64,000 nt of DNA from an uncultured Myxococcales bacterium (GTDB taxonomy: Bacteria > Myxococcota_A > UBA9042), in the NCBI GenBank assembly GCA_903955385.1, contig CAJBNH010000072.1, positions 40,063-104,062 of the forward strand, given 5' to 3'. A model generated the notes under the pieces. That model saw only the letters and a list, made by a program, of their open reading frames with translations. It had not been told where the DNA came from and did not search any database. How positions within the stretch are numbered: the first letter of the stretch is position 1; every line of letters starts with the position of its first letter. Position numbers and translations under genes: made by a program. Below are positions 1,775 through 38,046 of this stretch, one piece after another.

Positions 1775-3394
1775 ATGCCCCTCGCGCCCGCTCGCTCGTC
1801 AGTCACCCGGCGTGCGCGCCTCGTCGCGTGGGTTTGGGCTTGCCTGCTGGTCGCGCTGCCCGTTCGCGCACAGACGCAAGAACCCGCGGCGCCGGGGCCC
1901 CCGGACGCGCGCCCGCTCGTGACGCTCGAGTGGTCGGGTGAGGCCCGCCTGCGCACCGAGTGGCTGCAGGGCGTGGGTCTGGTGACCGACTCGACCAACA
2001 CCCCGCTTCGCTTCGGCTTGCGCCACGACGGCTCAACGATGGACCCGCTGCTGTCGGGCGGCAGCGTTGGCACAGGGGACCTGCGTCTGCGTCTGCGGCC
2101 GGTGCTGCGGGTGGCCGAGTGGTCTGAGGTGCACGCGCAGCTCGACCTTGCCGATGGTCTGGTGCTCGGCGACCTGTCGCGCGAAGACTTTCTGGCTCGG
2201 CTGACCGGCGACCCGTCGCAGTCGGTGACCAGCGGCATCGCGGTGCGGCGGTTGTGGGCGAAAGTGCGCCTGTTTGGTCTGGCTGAGCTGTTGGTGGGGC
2301 GCACGCCGGACCACTTCGGCATGGGCGTGCTGCGCAATCAGGGTGGCTCGCTGGGCGGCGACTATCAATCCGACGTCGACCGAGTCGCCGTGCTGACCGA
2401 CCTGATCGGCGTGCACTGGATGCTCGCCCGCGACACGATGGCCAGCTGGCCGGTGACGCGCTCGACCGGTGAGGACCCGCTGCAGTCGTGGGAGGATGCC
2501 GCCGACGTGATCCGCTGGGTGGTCGAGGCCTCTGGAGGTCGCAAGCCTGCAGATACACAAGGTCTTGCCTGGTCGGCCGCGGTGCTATGGCAGACGCAGG
2601 ACCGGGGCTTGTCTCTGGAACACGACGTGGACCCGGCCGGTCCCGTGCTCGTCGACTCGACCGATTGCCTGGTCGTCGGCACTTGCGCGGGCGTCGTGCC
2701 TCGCGGTGCGTCGATCGTGACTTCGCAGGCGGCGCTGGACTGGCGCTCGGGCGACCTGCACTTCGAAGCGGAAGGTGCCTTCCAGTACGGCACGTTCGAA
2801 CGCACGGAGCCCTTGCCGCGCACCGACACGTCCAAGACGCTGGTGGCGGGCGGCTTTGCGACCCGCACCACGTGGCGGCGCGGTCCCGGCGAGCTGAAGC
2901 TGGACGCAGGCCTGGCGACGGGAGAGGGCGACGGCGGCTTCGGCGTGCTGGACACGGACAACTTTCACCAACCGGGCTCGTCGGACGCCCAGCGGTCACT
3001 GCTGACCGGCTTTCGCTTCCACCGAGAATTCCGTGTAGACGGCCTGATGTTCCGCGATCTGATCGGAGCCGTCGCCAACGCTTGGTACGTGCGGCCCTCT
3101 TGGCGCCACGACCTGTTGCCGACCGGCACCGACACCGGGCTTCGTGTGGAAGCGGCCGTTCTGACCGCCGGTGCCGCCTCGCCCGACGCGACCCCTGGCG
3201 GCGCGGAGTGGCTGGGGCTCGAACCAGAGCTTGTCCTCGACTACCGCGGCGCTTCCTGCGGGACCGGCCTGTGTCTCGAGGGGCAGCTGCGCGGTTCCTG
3301 GCTGATGCCCGGAGCGGCGTGGGACGACGGCACCGGTGGGCTCGCCGCTCAGTCGGCTTGGCGCACGGAAGCCCTGTTGCGGCTTGCGTTCTGA
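1775..3394 (+). CDS. Outer-membrane beta-barrel, TIGR04551-like (myxobacterial alginate-export-type barrel)
   Basis: Signal peptide ending VRA-Q and GGAG RBS at 1761. Motifs GRTPDHFGMG..N.G, D..SDVDRV and FRFHREFRVDGLMFRDLIGAVANAWYVRP; C-terminal aromatic (LAF). Confidence 0.7.
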   Translation: MPLAPARSSVTRRARLVAWVWACLLVALPVRAQTQEPAAPGPPDARPLVTLEWSGEARLRTEWLQGVGLVTDSTNTPLRFGLRHDGSTMDPLLSGGSVGTGDLRLRLRPVLRVAEWSEVHAQLDLADGLVLGDLSREDFLARLTGDPSQSVTSGIAVRRLWAKVRLFGLAELLVGRTPDHFGMGVLRNQGGSLGGDYQSDVDRVAVLTDLIGVHWMLARDTMASWPVTRSTGEDPLQSWEDAADVIRWVVEASGGRKPADTQGLAWSAAVLWQTQDRGLSLEHDVDPAGPVLVDSTDCLVVGTCAGVVPRGASIVTSQAALDWRSGDLHFEAEGAFQYGTFERTEPLPRTDTSKTLVAGGFATRTTWRRGPGELKLDAGLATGEGDGGFGVLDTDNFHQPGSSDAQRSLLTGFRFHREFRVDGLMFRDLIGAVANAWYVRPSWRHDLLPTGTDTGLRVEAAVLTAGAASPDATPGGAEWLGLEPELVLDYRGASCGTGLCLEGQLRGSWLMPGAAWDDGTGGLAAQSAWRTEALLRLAF

Positions 3395-3591
3395 CCCAGG
3401 CGTGCGGCGTTCAGCGGTGCTCGGTCGTCACCCGTGCAGACGGCAGGTCCGTCACGGGCCGATTTGAATCCCCCAGTCTGCGCGTGTACGATGCCGGGTT
3501 CTGCGCTGGCGCCACTCGTTCTCGGGAGGTGCGGCACCGCAAGGCCCATCGCCCGCCACGATGAACCGGAGACCAGGAGACCACGACGCCC

Positions 3592-6500
3592 ATGACGACC
3601 CTCTTCCGCTCGCGGCTCTGGCCGGCGCTCGTCGGATTCGCCGTCGTCGTCGGCTGCGGCAACCCTGACGCCGCGACCACCAAGGACACCGCTGCGCCCG
3701 ACGCGGAGGTGGCCGACAGCGAGGACGGGGCCGCTACCGACGCAGTGGCGCCCGACACGTTGGACGTTCTCGAAGTCGACGACGGCGGTGCCGACACCCA
3801 GAGCACCGACACGTTGGACGTGCTTGCGGATCTGGAGCCTCAGGACGCGGCGACCGACATCGCTCCCGATCTCGTGACCGATCTGGATGCGCCCGCCGAC
3901 CTCGGCTCGGATGCAGCTGAGGGCATTGCAGAGGACGTTGCCGAGGACATTCCGACCGACGTTGGCGACATCGGCAAGTCGACCCACGCCAAGGCCTGCC
4001 TGACTGACGCTGATTGCAAGATCCCGTGTGGCAAGGGTGTTTGCGTCGCGGGCTCGTGCGACTTCAAGACCGTGTACGGCGGTGCATGCCTGGTCGGTCA
4101 GGGGGCGGACAAGGTCGGCTGCTACGGTGCTGGTGAGCAGGCGGACGGCCTGCCTTGCCTCGTTTGCATGCCCGATCTGGCGAAGACCCAGCTCAGCGCG
4201 GTGGCGACGCTCTTGCCGATGGACGGTGGGGAAGGTTTTGAGCTGCTGGACGCCTATCAGTCCGGTATTACTTGGAATTTCCACGACAAGCGCACGATTG
4301 ACGGCAACAAGAGCCTGTATTTCGGCAACCCCACGACCGGAACGTATGCGGGGACCAAGCCCGCCAGTGGCACTGCGACCAGCCCGCCGCTGGACGTCCC
4401 TGCGGGAGGCAACGCCAAGCCCCAGCTGCAGTTTTGGCTCTGGCTCGACACTGAACAGACCGCTGGCTACGACCTCCTGACGGTGACCATCGTGCAAGGG
4501 GAGGCGGTCAAGCAGGTCTGGACCAGCGACACGATCGGCGGCTCCACCGATGGTGCCTGGCAGCGGGTCGTCGTCGACCTGGCGCCGTATGCCGGACAGT
4601 CGGTCAAGGTCGTGTTCGCGTTCGACACCAAGGATGCCTTCGTCAATGCTTTCGAGGGCGTCTACATCGACCGCCTGCTCGTCACCAGCGGCTGCTGCGG
4701 CGGCGTGTCCGATTGCGACGACGGCGATGCCTGCACCCTCGACACCTGCGCGGCCGATACCGACGGCGTGCCCGTTTGCGGCCATCAGGCCGTCTCCGGT
4801 TGCTGCTCAGTCCACGCCGACTGCGACGACGGCTTGGCGTGCACGGTGGACCTGTGCAGCGGTCCCGGCGGCACCTGCGCCCACTCGCCCAAGCCCAGCT
4901 GCTGCGCCGGCGCAAAGGACTGCGACGACGGCGATGCGTGCACGCTGGACAGCTGCCCGATCGTAGGCGGAGCCTGCGAACACGTGAACACCTGCTGCAA
5001 GACGGCGGCCGACTGCAAGACGTCCGACCCGTGTCAGGTGCCCTCGTGCTCGGGGGGCCAGTGCTCGTTCGCCTCGACGTGCTGCTCCACGGCAGCTGAA
5101 TGCGACGACTTCAACCCGTGCACCAAGGACGCTTGCAGCCAAGGGCAGTGCCTGTACACGCCGTCGACGGCTCCCGGCTGTTGCTCGCCTGACGTGCTGG
5201 GCTCTGCCTTCTCTGGTTCGGCGGAGGGATGGACGTCTTCGGCAGCGCAGAACGGTCTGGACTGGCACTACAAGGCGTCGGACGCGGCCAAGAGCCCCCC
5301 GGGTGTGCTGCACTTTGGCGACGCCGGCAAGGACACCTACAGCCTGTCCAACGTCAAGATCAAGGTCACGGCAGCCTCACCGCCGTTCACCCTGATCTCA
5401 GGCAACGAGGCTTCGCTGACGTTTGAGGTCTCCGGACAGCAGGCGGGCTCTGGCAACACCCTGCGCGTCTACACGATCGTCGACAACGTCGAGGTGACGC
5501 TGACGACCATCCAGTCCTACACGATCTCGAACGTATGGAAGCTGTTCACGATCGACTTGACTCCGGTGGCGGGTCGCACGCTGCAAGTCTACTTCGAGGC
5601 CAACGTCGGCAACGGCTTTGGCACCGTCAGCGGTCAAGGCGTGCTGGTCGACAACATTCAGGTGAAATCGACCTGCCAGATCCGCAAGTGCTCGACCAGC
5701 GCCAACTGTCCGTCGGGCCCCTTCTCTTGTCTCACTGGCGTCTGCACGAACGGACAGTGCACGTACCCCACGTCCTGCTGTGCTTCGTCGGCGGAGTGCG
5801 ACGACAGCAACCTCTGCACCACCGACTCGTGCAACAGCTCTGGCAAGTGCACGTTTGCGGAACAGGCCGGGTGCTGCATGGGCAGCGGCGACTGCAACGA
5901 CAATAACGCTTGCACCACAGATACTTGCACCGGGCCTGGAGGGCAGTGCGTGTTCTCGCCGATCTCCGGGTGCTGTCTCAGCTCCGCCGCCTGCAACGAT
6001 CAGGACACCTGCACCGCCGACGACTGCGTGGACCAGAAGTGCAAGTACACCAACCTGTGCTGCGCGAGCGACAAGGAATGCGACGACGGAGAGACCAAGT
6101 GCTCCATCGACAAGTGCGTCGCGAAGTCCTGCGTGCACGAATCGACCGGTGCCGCCGGCTGCTGTCAGCCGATCGCTTGGTCCAACGCCTTCGAAGTGTC
6201 TGACCTGAAGGGGATCGCCATCTCGAACAGCGTCTCCGCCTCCAAGGGGTGGCAGATCTGGACGCCTGCGTGGGTCAGCAAGTCCCCATCGGGCGTGCTG
6301 TATTACGGCGATCCCACGCTGCAGAACTACAACTTCGGGGTCTCGTACGGGACGGCCAAGACGCCGACGGTGCAGCTGCCGGCCGACAAGCCGTCGGCGC
6401 TGACGTTTTGGCTGTACACGGACACCGAAGCTGGCGGCTTCTACGACGTGCTGACGGCGACGCTGTTCGTCAACGGCGCCAACGCCGGGCAGGTGTGGTC

Positions 6501-30325: not shown

Positions 30326-30568
30326 GTGGTTCAGGTCAACGTCCTCGAAGCCAAGACGCACTTGTCCAGGCTGCTCGCACAAGTTGCGCGTGGCGATGAA
30401 GTCGTGATCGCCAAGGACGGCCGGCCGGTGGCGCGTCTGACGCCGATTCGCGACGAACCAGAGGAAGGCCGAGTCTTCGGCGCGGCCCAGGGGCGTTACG
30501 GAAGCCCGCCGGACGACACGTTTGCGCCGCTGGACGACGCCGAGCTCGCCGAGTGGGAGGCCCCGTGA
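30326..30568 (+). CDS. vapB: Phd/YefM-family antitoxin
   Basis: AGGAGG RBS then GTG; VNVLEAKTHLSRLL..V..G.EVVIAK.GRPVARL. Confidence 0.9.
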   Translation: MVQVNVLEAKTHLSRLLAQVARGDEVVIAKDGRPVARLTPIRDEPEEGRVFGAAQGRYGSPPDDTFAPLDDAELAEWEAP

Positions 30569-30954
30569 GCGGTCGCTTGCTGCTGGACACCCATGCTGTC
30601 GTGTGGTGGCTGCTGGGCGACGGGCGCCTGACGCCCAGCGCGCGCGAGGCGATCGGTCAGGGGCGCGAGGTCTATGTCAGCGCCGCGAGTGCGTGGGAGA
30701 TCTCGACCAAGGCGCGCCTGGGCAAGTGGCCTGAGGCGGCGGAATTCGCGCAGGATCTTGGGATGTGGGTGCGGCGGCAGGGGATGCGCACGCTCGAGAT
30801 CACGCTGGACCATGGCCTGCGCGCGGGGCAATTGCCGGGACCGCATCGGGATCCGTTCGATCGGATGTTGCTGGCCCAGTGTCAGGCCGAGGCGCTTTCG
30901 CTTGTGAGTTGCGACGTTGCGTTGGACGGCTATGGCGTTCGGCGGGTTTGGTAG
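30565..30954 (+). CDS. vapC: PIN-domain VapC toxin
   Basis: GTGA overlap with the antitoxin; LLLDTHAVVWW, VSAASAWEI..K, HRDPFDRML.AQ, LVSCD. Confidence 0.92.
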   Translation: MSGRLLLDTHAVVWWLLGDGRLTPSAREAIGQGREVYVSAASAWEISTKARLGKWPEAAEFAQDLGMWVRRQGMRTLEITLDHGLRAGQLPGPHRDPFDRMLLAQCQAEALSLVSCDVALDGYGVRRVW

Positions 30955-30959
30955 GGGCG

Positions 30960-32483
30960 TCAGGTCTCGAACCGCGCCTTCAACCGCTCCAGCAACGCCC
31001 CATGCAGCCCCTGGAAGTCGCGGCCGCTCATCGCAAGCACCACGTCTCCCGGTTCGGCGGCGCCGGCCACGTAATCGACGATGTCCGCGACGGCCGGAAT
31101 GAAGCGGGCGGACGTCCCCTGCGCCTCGATCGATTGGCACACCGCGCCCGCGTCCATGATCTCGTCGGGCTTGAGCTTGTCGCCTTCCTTGTGCAGCGGA
31201 CTGCACAGCACCACGCGATCGGCTAGCGCGAACACGTCGGGGTACACCGTCTCGAAGACCTTGCGGCGCGACGTGTTGGACTCGGCCTCGAACAGCGCCC
31301 ACAGCCGGTGCCCCGGGTACTGGCCGCGGATCGCCGCGATCGTCTCCTTCACGGCGGTCGGATGGTGCGCGTAGTCGTCGATGACCGAGACGCCCCCCAC
31401 AACCCCGCGCAGCTCCTGACGTTTGCGTACGCTCTTGAACTGTGCCAGCGCCGCGATCGCCTGCGCGATCGTCACGCCCAGATCCAACGCCAGCAGCAGG
31501 GCCGCCGTCGCATTCAGCACGTTGTGGCGACCCGGCGACGGGCACAGGAACGGCCCCAGAATCGCGGTCTCGCTGGGCCACCACGGCAGGTCAGCCTGCG
31601 ACCCGGCAGGGCGGTAGAGGCTGAAACGTGCACCATCCGGGCCCAAACCGTGCAGATCGATCGCCACGTCCAGCGGCAGCCCGCCCTCGAAGCCGTAGCG
31701 GGCCACACGTCCCTTGCAGGCGTCGAGCACCGCTGTTACCCGCTCGTCCTCGCCCCACGCCACCAGCAGGCCGTCGGCCGGGAAGAGCGACGCGTACAAG
31801 CGAAACGCCCGCTGCACCGCCGCGAAGTCGGGGTAGATGTCGGCATGATCGAACTCGACCGAGGTCAACACGCCGTGATGCGGCCGGTAGTGCACGAATT
31901 TCGGGCGCTTGTCGTAATACGCGGTGTCGTACTCGTCGCCCTCGATGACAAAGGGCTTGCCCTCGCCCAGGCGAAACGACGTCCCCAGGTTCAGCGGCAC
32001 TCCGCCGACCAACAGCCCCGGCGACAGGCCCGAGGCCTCGAGCAGCCACGCGAGCATGGACGTGGTGGTCGTCTTGCCGTGCGTGCCCGCGACGACGACG
32101 GGAATGCGGCCCGGCAGCATCCACTCGCCCAGCCCTTCGGGAAACGAGCAGTACGGCAGGTTCTTGGCGCGCATCGCCTCGGCCTCGACGTTGTCGCGCT
32201 TGACCACGTTGCCGACGACCACCAAGTCCGGGCCCCAGTCCAGGTTCTTGGCGTCGTAGCCGTCCCAGAAGGGGATGCCCCAGCGCTCGAGCTGGCCGCG
32301 CATCGGGTGGAAGACGCCCGCGTCCGAGCCGCGCACTTCCATGCCGCGCGCTTGCAGCATGCCGGCGAAATTGCCCATGGCCGACCCGCCGATGCCGATC
32401 AGGTGGACCTTCTTGACCTTGGCGTAGTCGACGGGCGGGCGGGCTTCCGGGACGCGCTCGGCGGGGCCGGGGATGAAGGGCAT
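30960..32483 (-). CDS. mpl: Mpl/MurC-family UDP-MurNAc peptide ligase (Mpl-like)
   Basis: HLIGIGGSAMG, VAGTHGKTTT, FVIEGDEYDTAYYDKRPKF.HY, EFDHADIY, DDYAHHPT. DEYD/HADI and GxAMG fit Mpl better than MurC. Confidence 0.82.
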   Translation of the reverse strand: MPFIPGPAERVPEARPPVDYAKVKKVHLIGIGGSAMGNFAGMLQARGMEVRGSDAGVFHPMRGQLERWGIPFWDGYDAKNLDWGPDLVVVGNVVKRDNVEAEAMRAKNLPYCSFPEGLGEWMLPGRIPVVVAGTHGKTTTTSMLAWLLEASGLSPGLLVGGVPLNLGTSFRLGEGKPFVIEGDEYDTAYYDKRPKFVHYRPHHGVLTSVEFDHADIYPDFAAVQRAFRLYASLFPADGLLVAWGEDERVTAVLDACKGRVARYGFEGGLPLDVAIDLHGLGPDGARFSLYRPAGSQADLPWWPSETAILGPFLCPSPGRHNVLNATAALLLALDLGVTIAQAIAALAQFKSVRKRQELRGVVGGVSVIDDYAHHPTAVKETIAAIRGQYPGHRLWALFEAESNTSRRKVFETVYPDVFALADRVVLCSPLHKEGDKLKPDEIMDAGAVCQSIEAQGTSARFIPAVADIVDYVAGAAEPGDVVLAMSGRDFQGLHGALLERLKARFET

Positions 32484-32951
32484 GGCGGGGGCTCCTTGCT
32501 GGCGGGAATGCGAGACGGCGAGGGCGGTTCCGGGGCCTCAGTGTCGTCGGCCGCAGACTAGCGCGGGGCCGGTGGGTGTCAAAAAGGCGGGAGGGGTCAG
32601 GTATTCCCATTTCGCACTTTTCGGCGGGCCTGACGAGTCCGGTCGGGAGGCAAGGGCGGTCGGGCGTGCCCCTGCGGCCCTAACGGGCCTGGGGTCGCGC
32701 TGGCGGTCGGCTGCGCCGACTCGTGACGCCCGGCGGCCGGGCGCCACGACCCCTGCGGGGCGCACATCGCTCACGCGTGAGATTTCTGGCGTCCATGCAG
32801 AGACTTGTCCTATCCACCGCACCATCGGCCCTCCCGAATTCCACCACGTCGCGCGGCAAATCCCGCCAGCGAGCGACAAGTAGGCGACGTTTGCCCACGT
32901 CGCCGGCGGTCGGACCGCCGCGACGCGCGGGCACTTTCGGGAGGAACCGCC

Positions 32952-33212
32952 ATGCCAGAGATCAGTCGCTTCCTCGGCCTTGTCGTCCGGATGTACTGGG
33001 ACGATCACCCGCCGCCGCACATCCATGTCGAATACGCCAGCGAGCAAGCCATCTTGCGCTTCGATACGATGGAAGTCGTCCGAGGTCGCCTGCACGGCCG
33101 CGCACTTGCGCTCCTGATCGAGTGGGCGGTCTTGCATCGGGCGGAGTTGGCCGCAAACTGGACCCGTGTCGAGCGCGGCGAGCCCCTGCAGCCCATCGCC
33201 CCGCTGGAGTAG
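32952..33212 (+). CDS. DUF4160 protein (DhiT/HicA-like putative toxin)
   Basis: GGAGGA RBS; MPEISRFLG+V+.MY..DH.PPH.H..Y, EWA..H..EL..NW, I.PL. Confidence 0.88.
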   Translation: MPEISRFLGLVVRMYWDDHPPPHIHVEYASEQAILRFDTMEVVRGRLHGRALALLIEWAVLHRAELAANWTRVERGEPLQPIAPLE

Positions 33213-33214
33213 TC

Positions 33215-33457
33215 ATGGAACGCATCGTCGAACTCGAGTCGCGGCCGCCGTACCGCCTGTATCTCCGCTTCGATGATGGCGTGTGCGGCGAAGTCGATCT
33301 CGCGGACCGATTGCTGGGGCCCATGTTCGCACCGCTGCACGACCCCACCTACTTCGCGCGGGTGGTGCTGTCGGACTACGGTGCGCCGCTGTGGCCGAAC
33401 GGGCTCGACCTCGCGCCCGACGCGCTGCACGAGCGGCTGCGGCGTCGGCGCGGGTGA
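33215..33457 (+). CDS. DUF2442 protein (DhiA-like putative antitoxin)
   Basis: Y.L.L.FDDG..G.VDL, F.PL.DP.YF..V, ...WPNGLDLAPD.L; starts 2 nt after DUF4160. Confidence 0.88.
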   Translation: MERIVELESRPPYRLYLRFDDGVCGEVDLADRLLGPMFAPLHDPTYFARVVLSDYGAPLWPNGLDLAPDALHERLRRRRG

Positions 33458-33619
33458 GCCTCGGTGCGGCACAAGGCGCGGGCGATTTGCGGGCGTCTGC
33501 CGGGCCTCCCTTCTCGGAGTGTGCCGGCGCGCGAGCCAGCCAAACCAGGCTTGATGACACGGGCTCGCGAGTTCTGCAGACTGGGCTGCGGCCATCGCGG
33601 ATTGCCTGCGGGAGAATTC

Positions 33620-34147
33620 ATGCGACACCTCGCAATCACAGGTTGCCTCCTCGCGGTTTCGGTCGCCGCCTGCGTCTCGGCCCCCGACCCACCCCTGCCC
33701 GGTGCCTACTGCGGCACGTGGCGCGTGGAGGCGTGGGCCAACCGGCCTGGCTACCCTTCCTGCGGAGCTGCCGACGCGTGGCAAGCCGGGCGTCCTGGGC
33801 GCTTCACGGCGACCATCCAGGGCGACTCGGCCGAGCAGCGCGTCATGGCAATCGCGCTGGACTACGCCGGTGCACCGGGCGCTCCTTCGGTGCTTGATCT
33901 CTCGGTCTTCTGCCCGATCGGGATCGAGTCGACGGTCTGCTTCGGCGACGCCTGGACAGGAACCTGGGATGAGGCGGACACCAAGGTCCAACTGGAGGTG
34001 AACAACCCGGCCGTGATGTGGGAGGCCCGCGATGCCCGGCTGAGCGTCCTGCGCATCCTGCGCCGTTTCGAGGGCGCAGCCGTGCTGCCGACCAGCACTT
34101 GCGCGGACTTCCTCTTCCTCGAGCAGGGTCCGTCCTGCCCGCCGTGA
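33620..34147 (+). CDS. Hypothetical lipoprotein
   Basis: GGAG RBS, lipobox VAAC, lipocalin-like start YCGTWRV, several Cys. Confidence 0.6.
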   Translation: MRHLAITGCLLAVSVAACVSAPDPPLPGAYCGTWRVEAWANRPGYPSCGAADAWQAGRPGRFTATIQGDSAEQRVMAIALDYAGAPGAPSVLDLSVFCPIGIESTVCFGDAWTGTWDEADTKVQLEVNNPAVMWEARDARLSVLRILRRFEGAAVLPTSTCADFLFLEQGPSCPP

Positions 34148-34189
34148 CCTGCGGGTGACTCCCACTGGCGCCGCACCTATCCTCGCCCC

Positions 34190-34636
34190 ATGGCACACGA
34201 ACCCGCCGACGCCGAGCTGCAGGCCGCCCGCGACGAGGCGATCCGCATCGCCCACGTCGTGGTCGAGGCGCTTCCCGCTCGCGTCGCCCTCGACACCGCC
34301 TGGCTCTACGGCTCGGGCGCCACGGGGCGGCTGCGCAAGGACAGCGACCTCGACATCGGGCTGCTGCTGCAGGGCAGTGTCTCCGCTTGGGAACTCGCTA
34401 AGCTCGCAGCGGAATTCGAACCGCTCGCCGGCCGCCCCCTGCAGTTGGTGGATCTCGACGCGGCCGGACCCATCCTCGCGCGCCAGGTGCTCGCCAAGGG
34501 GGTGCTGGTGCTCGACGCCAAGCCCGCGCGGCGGCATCACTTCCTGATGCGCACGATGACGGCTTACGCGGACTTGAAGCACGCGCGAGCGCCAGTCGAG
34601 GCCGCCTTGCGAGCGAGGTTGCGCCGTGAGGGGTGA
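34190..34636 (+). CDS. Minimal nucleotidyltransferase (MntA-type antitoxin-like)
   Basis: WLYGS.A.G..R.DSDLDI (GS-x10-DxD), G.P+.LVDL..A.P+L..QV...G.L. Confidence 0.85.
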   Translation: MAHEPADAELQAARDEAIRIAHVVVEALPARVALDTAWLYGSGATGRLRKDSDLDIGLLLQGSVSAWELAKLAAEFEPLAGRPLQLVDLDAAGPILARQVLAKGVLVLDAKPARRHHFLMRTMTAYADLKHARAPVEAALRARLRREG

Positions 34637-34731
34637 CGTCGATCAAGCTACGAACCATCGCGTTCACGGCGCGCTGCTCGCGGCCGTGCTGCTCCCGCAG
34701 GCCAAGATCCTTGGCAGATCGCTGAGCAGGG

Positions 34732-35313
34732 GGTAGCCCCCGGACTGAAGTCCAGGGGCTACCGTTCGAGAAGTCCGCGTCGATGACGCGCGGACTGGCA
34801 AACCGCGCGGCGAATTTCGTCTCGGAGCGATAATCGCTTGCGCATTGCCACGCGCGAACCGGTGACGTCGATGAGCCACGTCCATTCTTGTTTGCACGTC
34901 CACCTGGTCTGGTCGGTCAAGGACCGTGCCCGCTTGTTGACACCGGAGGTCTGGGGTTGGCTTGCGGGGGCCATGTCGACGAAAGCGCGCGCCCTGGGCT
35001 GCCGGCATGGCGTTGTCGGCGGCGTCGACGACCACATCCATGTCCTGGCAGACCTGCCGCCCACGCTGGCCGTGTCCGAATTGGTGCGCCAGATCAAGGG
35101 CGCGACCAGCTACATCGCACATTCGAAAGGTGCCGCGCTTTCCTGGCAGCCGGGTTACGGCGCGTTTGCCGTCAGCAAGGACGACGTCGCTGCGGTCGAC
35201 GCGTACGTTCGAGGGCAGGTCGCGCATCATGCGGACCGAACGCTTCGCGTGGACCTGGAGCCAGTCCCGCAGGGACTTCTTGAACGGTAGCCCACGGACT
35301 TCAGTCCGGGGGC
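34732..35313 (+). mobile_element. REP-flanked Y1 transposase element (REPtron/RAYT-like)
   Basis: Inverted GTAG-REP palindromes at 34732-34763 and 35287-35313 bracket the tnpA; about 39-bp terminal inverted repeats. Confidence 0.8.
34871..35290 (+). CDS. tnpA: IS200/IS605-family Y1 (HUH) transposase, RAYT-like
   Basis: HLVWSVK.R, HUH motif DHIH, +.ELVR.IKG.TS, WQ.GYGAF.VS, catalytic Y in AYVRGQ..HH. Confidence 0.9.
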   Translation: MSHVHSCLHVHLVWSVKDRARLLTPEVWGWLAGAMSTKARALGCRHGVVGGVDDHIHVLADLPPTLAVSELVRQIKGATSYIAHSKGAALSWQPGYGAFAVSKDDVAAVDAYVRGQVAHHADRTLRVDLEPVPQGLLER

Positions 35314-35385: not shown

Positions 35386-35655
35386 CTACTTCAAAGCCGC
35401 CTTCATGCGCGCCAAAAGCGGCGAAGCCTCGTCGTCCAACCCAAAGCTCCGCCCCGCCTCCTTGAACGCCACGGTCCCGGCCGTCGCCTCCAACCCATGC
35501 TTGCCGAAAGCCTTCTCCTGAATCGCCATCGGCAGCGCGATCATCTTGGCCACGTCGCCCGCCGCCTTGGCCGCCGCCATGTTGGCCTTGAACGTCGGGT
35601 CCTCGAAGCCCTCTACGATGGTCTGGAGGATGTCGAGAAACGTTGCCTTGTCCAT
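35386..35655 (-). CDS. 89-aa helical protein resembling eukaryotic protein C10 (C12orf57)
   Basis: GAGGAG RBS inside the last codons of the upstream ATPase and strong codon bias. By-eye match to recalled C10 motifs. Confidence 0.6.
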   Translation of the reverse strand: MDKATFLDILQTIVEGFEDPTFKANMAAAKAAGDVAKMIALPMAIQEKAFGKHGLEATAGTVAFKEAGRSFGLDDEASPLLARMKAALK

Positions 35656-35658
35656 GGG

Positions 35659-38046
<2,388 letters not shown>

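Follow-up and report, generated by a model that had tools for sequence, protein, structure and literature searches.

A predicted five-helix-bundle protein resembling eukaryotic C10 is encoded beside an AAA+ ATPase in one family of uncultured Myxococcota

The stretch of DNA analyzed here, hereafter the window, comprises 64,000 nucleotides of an uncultured Myxococcales bacterium (contig CAJBNH010000072.1) and carries on its minus strand a gene for an AAA+ ATPase, immediately followed by a small gene which we name C10L (C10-like) for its resemblance to the eukaryotic protein C10, known as C12orf57 in human and GRCC10 in mouse (Table 1). The start of the ATPase gene is fixed by 27 orthologues, all beginning with MA[RK]xG[LI][ST]GLPP, and a longer ORF of 902 aa was rejected as the ATPase gene since it would overlap the divergent serA-like gene.

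Table 1. Position of the features of the C10L locus in the window.
Feature	Position	Strand	Description
Mobile/toxin-antitoxin-type block	30553-35290		Lies between mpl and C10L
VapC/PIN	30553-30954		In the mobile/toxin-antitoxin-type block
DUF4160	32805-33212		In the mobile/toxin-antitoxin-type block
Pol-beta-type nucleotidyltransferase	34190-34636		In the mobile/toxin-antitoxin-type block
IS200-like Y1 transposase	34838-35290		In the mobile/toxin-antitoxin-type block
C10-like gene (C10L)	35386..35655	-	89 aa + stop; ORF and translation; predicted five-helix bundle
Shine-Dalgarno GAGGAG of C10L	35662..35667	-	Coincides with the two Glu codons that precede the stop of the ATPase gene
AAA+ ATPase gene	35659..38046	-	795 aa, start MARTGLSGLPP; Pfam AAA, WHD, Ribosomal_S13
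Single classical-clade AAA domain of the ATPase	35923..36291	-	PF00004, E 7.7e-26
ATPase Walker B	36097-36117	-	LLFDEAD
ATPase Walker A	36259-36282	-	GPSGTGKT
Walker-A-like motif without lysine	37042-37059	-	GPERAG, middle region of the ATPase
Variant winged-helix domain of the ATPase (PF22977)	37270..37560	-	aa 163-259; Pfam E 4.6e-8, 33.4 bits
uS13-like N-terminal domain of the ATPase	37840..38046	-	aa 1-69; PF00416, 28-31 bits

At the junction of the two genes the minus strand reads ...GTA GAG GAG TAA CCC ATG, where the ATG of C10L lies 6 nt downstream of GAGGAG and 3 nt beyond the TAA of the ATPase gene, a stop-to-start gap which implies translational coupling. A promoter/terminator scan identified neither a promoter nor a terminator on the minus strand for the pair. 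When searched against 5.8 billion proteins, C10L retrieved homologues forming 48 clusters at 90% identity, with a length of 86-92 aa in all clusters except for one 48-aa fragment; the few homologues bearing a name are hypothetical proteins of Myxococcales or Deltaproteobacteria MAGs, no precomputed Pfam domain is assigned to any of the 48 clusters, and the alignment of 47 sequences retains 17 invariant columns. The original prediction regarded C10L as a real small gene on the basis of its ribosome binding site and codon bias, and this holds: the ORF translates exactly to the 89 aa quoted at the time, is preceded by GAGGAG, has a GC3 of 0.89 against a genomic GC content of 68%, and shows pairwise dN/dS values of 0.06-0.23 with respect to its orthologues. 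C10L is a genuine gene and evolves under purifying selection.

C10L is also a narrow, lineage-specific, single-copy core gene. A profile built on the bacterial sequences detected it in 28 out of 29 genomes of one Myxococcota family, whereas about 370 genomes from the rest of the phylum gave no match, and among 185,579 species genomes it is present in 28 species, all represented by uncultured Myxococcota MAGs. Using C10L as query, phmmer retrieved 14 representatives, all bacterial and short, among 1.84 billion clustered proteins, the remaining matches being low-complexity ones to two proteins some 2000 aa long. The hosts are mostly freshwater bacteria, and lake samples (Baikal, Erken, Mendota-type bins) and groundwater are the source of many of the MAGs. 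As regards sequence labels, several MAG records with the gene pair (L033, L039, L045, L052, L053, and L056) bear the title "uncultured Enterobacteriaceae bacterium" or "Klebsiella pneumoniae", which looks wrong.

The ATPase encoded upstream of C10L combines a uS13-like N-terminal domain, a variant winged-helix domain and a single AAA domain. The uS13 assignment is strengthened by a profile of 21 orthologues, which matched uS13 chains of the PDB with an E-value of 5.7e-10, residue 1 being aligned to residue 1; canonical rpsM is also kept in the genomes (G000, C8:77780-78100), and such an N-terminal uS13 copy on an AAA+ ATPase is unusual in itself. The winged-helix match exceeds the 27-bit cut-off of PF22977, and the same domain is annotated in three orthologues (L001, L003, and L005). 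In the AAA domain both Walker motifs are intact and the arginines of the second region of homology lie in AFMRRIR, the closest solved structures being those of VAT, Cdc48, p97, AFG2, and Rix7 (E-values from 1e-32 to 1e-25). The GPERAG motif in the middle region suggests that the active AAA domain is preceded by a second, degenerate domain of nucleotide-binding-like character. ATPase orthologues, sharing 64-100% identity, are confined to the taxonomic family of C10L; outside it paralogues only were recovered, with 25-40% identity, and at eight paralogue loci in other families no C10-like ORF was found beside the ATPase gene. Among the Myxococcota paralogues, tandem AAA-AAA pairs were observed in L025 (1981-6889), L026 (1907-6396), and L028 (84-6228), none of them with a C10-like ORF nearby.

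The ATPase orthologue adjoins C10L in all of the 28 loci with a readable flank (16 of 16 in an earlier subset). The two genes are co-oriented in 27 species, with a gap of 1-141 nt that does not exceed 51 nt in 24 of them. In the genome G008 (locus L052) C10L (3001-3258, plus strand) is instead inverted and convergent with the ATPase gene (3308-5689, minus strand), from which it is 50 nt apart, so that co-translation of the two is not obligatory. The other neighbors of the pair vary: a TPR protein and ClpB are found in one locus, while serA-like, Big_5, FtsX-type, mpl, and rpsA genes lie nearby in other loci, including the present window. The mobile/toxin-antitoxin-type block is an insertion specific to this genome, and at its position related genomes encode a protein of 408-501 aa and a MopE-like protein of about 1100 aa. 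It had been anticipated that the gene neighborhood could reveal the function of the C10 family; it does provide a lead, i.e., the strictly conserved AAA+ ATPase neighbor, but the role of the family itself is not yet revealed.

The resemblance to C10 had originally been proposed from a series of ordered motifs, with the Pfam profile P_C10 (PF14974) as the suggested comparison. P_C10 proved to be the sole Pfam match of C10L, with an E-value of 0.0029 (corrected for 24,736 models) and an alignment of aa 1-77 to positions 1-84 of the 103 in the model, but the score of 18.1 bits lies below the curated gathering cut-off of 27 bits and C10L does not qualify as a Pfam member of P_C10. The match is a repeated one, given that 16 of 47 C10L homologues matched P_C10 at E < 1 (best E-value 7.2e-4) and that no other Pfam family was matched by more than one of the 47; many homologues have no Pfam match, and P_C10 is no longer matched by most of those that diverge further. 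The consensus of the family scored 15.3 bits (aa 1-86 vs. model positions 1-94 of 103). In six-frame genome searches with P_C10 the C10L ORF was the top match in five genomes of its family, while no match over the cut-off occurred in 401 genomes of the phylum, where the two noise matches outside the family, both of partial length only, reached 17-19 bits.

Comparison of the two families as profiles gave a stronger signal. The eukaryotic search was carried out with a human C12orf57 sequence, which shared 97-99% identity with mammalian C10 entries of the database; the resulting alignment contained 20 vertebrate sequences, drawn among the matches listed, which vertebrates took up entirely, and to these one invertebrate C10, from the brachiopod Lingula, was added after being found with a truncated profile. 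The eukaryotic profile consists therefore of vertebrates and a single brachiopod and has a low diversity (Neff about 2). Using hhalign, the bacterial and vertebrate alignments could be joined over 80 collinear columns with a score of 29.3, an E-value of 1.4e-4 and a probability of 52%. With the bacterial set enlarged to 72 sequences the E-value became 8e-5 and the probability 61%, and adding the Lingula sequence gave 81 collinear columns, a score of 32.3, an E-value of 4e-5 and a probability of 70%; this climb of the score with added diversity is the behavior expected of true homology. Shuffling the bacterial alignment by columns (200 replicates) or by blocks (200 replicates) yielded mean scores of 11.7 and 13.8, respectively, with a maximum of 25.0, and none of the 400 controls reached the score of 29.3. 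In the reciprocal direction, each of the 21 eukaryotic C10 proteins was matched by the bacterial HMM along its entire length, at 12.8-24.0 bits and with per-sequence E-values from 2e-9 to 6e-6. With the vertebrate plus Lingula HMM, C10L came first among the 55,343 ORFs of 50 aa or more in the genome of the window, although its score of 9.8 bits is not significant. Twenty columns reach 90% conservation or more in each of the two families, the eukaryotic set being made of vertebrates and one brachiopod: seven are identical, eight similar and five different. The identical ones are, for C10L and C10 respectively, F17/F27, A29/A39, D34/D46, L41/L55, Q46/Q62, F64/F81, and K85/K103. The residue L51 of human C12orf57, associated with disease (PMC13478489), aligns with I39 of C10L, in helix 3, where the family conserves a hydrophobic residue (L, M or I). 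The motif likeness first noticed goes thus beyond chance, with P_C10 as the only Pfam match and no shuffled alignment attaining the real score, and no unrelated family scored better in the databases searched.

The predicted structures are in line with the profile alignment. AlphaFold2 modeled C10L from the bacterial alignment with a pLDDT of 95.5 and helices at residues 3-18, 20-32, 35-51, 57-71, and 77-88, and vertebrate C10 as five helices at 13-28, 30-43, 47-69, 76-89, and 93-104. In the hhalign register, helices 1 and 2 of the two models coincide within a residue and helices 4 and 5 deviate by no more than 2-3 residues, while helix 3 is longer by six residues in C10, exactly where hhalign places its gaps. 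Human C12orf57 has been independently described as a five-helix bundle (PMC13478489). Foldseek searches of the PDB with the C10L and vertebrate C10 models returned nothing meaningful (best E-value above 1, TM below 0.4) and no match common to the two, nor did either model have a meaningful match in BFVD. We know of no solved structure of C12orf57/C10. The structural argument for kinship, as far as these models go, is one of secondary-structure congruence only. Searches of NCBIfam, PADLOC and, by sequence profile, the PDB did not return any other family for C10L, and its placement in an unrelated known helical family was rejected, as nothing of the kind emerged from Pfam, NCBIfam, PADLOC, the PDB searched by sequence, or the PDB and BFVD searched by fold.

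These results have to be weighed against the possibility that C10L is an orphan helical protein of this lineage, still a partner of the ATPase, whose likeness to C10 arose by convergence, as could happen if two five-helix bundles of similar size, both rich in Ala and Leu, came to have a few motifs in common by chance. The sub-threshold scores (18 vs. 27 bits), the fact that partial-length noise matches score equally well, the loss of the Pfam match in most of the more divergent members, and the narrowness of the family, which with 14 representatives in 1.84 billion proteins offers no bridge to eukaryotes, would all be compatible with such an origin. We consider it rather unlikely, nonetheless, because three independent statistics agree (Pfam E-value 0.003, hhalign E-value 4e-5, reciprocal HMM E-values from 2e-9 to 6e-6), the score rises with diversity while the shuffles never reach it, and the alignment is collinear over the full length, with coinciding conserved columns and helix boundaries. 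The proposal of a prokaryotic homologue of C10 comes out of these tests with the resemblance intact, but with every score below the Pfam cut-off. Homology of C10L to eukaryotic C10 is therefore probable, and is held short of proven since the scores are below cut-off, the eukaryotic profile is almost entirely vertebrate, and the agreement of the models is one of secondary structure.

The link with the ATPase can likewise be read in other ways. C10L might act as a substrate or inhibitor rather than as a cofactor, or it might form with the ATPase a toxin-antitoxin-like or defense pair of the IetAS type, since the AAA domain of the ATPase matches the IetA models of PADLOC and NCBIfam (E-values from 1e-22 to 1e-25) and VapC, nucleotidyltransferase and Y1 transposase genes lie nearby. 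The IetA match, however, covers the generic AAA core only, with 79.7 bits against a cut-off of 510, no IetS-like protease occurs among the neighbors, and C10L has no PADLOC match; assignment to an IetAS-type system was rejected on the IetA score and on the missing protease neighbor. The nearby mobile genes belong to the insertion specific to this genome, whereas the pair itself behaves as a single-copy core gene set: 28 of the 29 family genomes have it, and serA-like, mpl, rpsA, and FtsX-type genes accompany it in conserved synteny, unlike defense islands, which are typically patchy. A role in defense or as a toxin-antitoxin system appears unlikely. Even less credit can be given to the idea that C10L merely travels in the operon with a function unrelated to the ATPase. 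Genomic context alone links the two genes, and in one genome they are convergent, as that idea would allow; yet the adjacency persists in 28 of 28 species, at protein identities of 51-98%, while the other neighbors change, it survives a local inversion, and the two genes share the same phyletic range. Such persistence across 28 species and across an inversion makes pure hitch-hiking quite improbable.

The explanation that best accounts for the observations as a whole combines a distant homology of C10L to C10 with a role as dedicated cofactor of the adjoining ATPase, a joint reading to which we assign a probability of roughly 0.6. Only the position of the genes points to the partnership. The conserved unit consists of the ATPase and C10L, and the dedicated-cofactor reading is the most economical one; the occurrence of ATPase paralogues elsewhere in the phylum without any C10L counts against it. 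Gene order and domain content suggest how the pair might work. C10L, a small and presumably soluble five-helix-bundle protein distantly related to C10, would be made together with the ATPase, by translational coupling in most species, and would bind it as a substrate adaptor or regulator of a presumably hexameric unfoldase. The uS13-like domain may serve for docking on rRNA, ribosomal particles or other nucleic acid, and would direct the pair toward an RNA- or ribosome-associated substrate.

Like C10, C10L is a small protein with a folded core of about 90 residues predicted to be a five-helix bundle, and the helices of the two correspond in order and boundaries. Set against the vertebrate and brachiopod C10 sequences, it shares F, D, L(-P), Q, F, and a basic residue, as well as a basic-hydrophobic-K pattern in the last helix. 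It differs from C10 in being only about 25% identical, with scores below the Pfam cut-off. It also has neither the disordered segment at the N-terminus nor the Pro-rich tail (LPPMxxPPHG) at the C-terminus, ending right after helix 5. It is, moreover, bacterial, limited to one Myxococcota family, and encoded in an operon with an AAA+ ATPase, while C10 is eukaryotic. In the literature searched we found no mention of prokaryotic relatives of C10, of PF14974 or of PF22977.

C12orf57 is the Temtamy syndrome gene. According to the authors of its main functional study, the human protein has no recognized motif or domain, and it was reported to bind the autoinhibitory region of CAMK4 (PMC11838199); it is also predicted to bind residues 66-505 of ANKRD50 (PMC13478489). 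Neither of these partners is a Cdc48-like ATPase. The gene pair offers the testable hypothesis that proteins with the C10 fold bind and modulate P-loop ATPases. The N-terminal part of ANKRD50 probably carries a NACHT-type P-loop NTPase domain; if it does, the bacterial and the human C10-fold protein would each have a P-loop NTPase as partner, which is a lead only. One could go further and speculate that C10 proteins are ancient small helical cofactors of P-loop NTPases of the AAA+ or STAND type, that the bacterial pair is a remodeling machine acting on the ribosome or on RNA, to which its uS13-like domain would dock it, and that C12orf57 acts through an NTPase partner; we regard this broad generalization as improbable, but if it were true the above region of ANKRD50 would be a candidate partner and Temtamy syndrome a defect of an NTPase-cofactor module. 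The significance of the finding is bounded by the remoteness of the homology and by a narrow, uncultured bacterial family, and any transfer of function to humans is speculative. C10L itself, modeled with a pLDDT of 95, appears a small and well-behaved target for structural work.

Among bacterial systems, the arrangement recalls by analogy that of clpS-clpA and of the small cofactors of Cdc48, p97, and AFG2, in that C10L is a protein of about 90-100 aa encoded beside, and presumably expressed together with, an AAA+ ATPase of the hexameric type. ClpS, however, is an alpha/beta protein, whereas C10L is predicted to be all-helical, with no relation to ClpS in sequence or fold; an identity as a ClpS-type adaptor was rejected, as no match to ClpS or to another adaptor family emerged from Pfam or NCBIfam and the model is all-helical. 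The partner of C10L differs also from the ATPase of the clpS-clpA pair: its single AAA domain is of the classical clade, and no protease is associated with it. With the bacterial WHD-AAA ATPases (PF22977 plus PF00004), a large paralogous family of Myxococcota and other phyla, it shares the succession of winged helix, middle region and C-terminal AAA domain at 25-40% identity over nearly the full length. What sets it apart from the WHD-AAA paralogues examined, which often have a tandem second AAA gene, is the presence of C10L downstream, a feature of the orthologous group of this family only.
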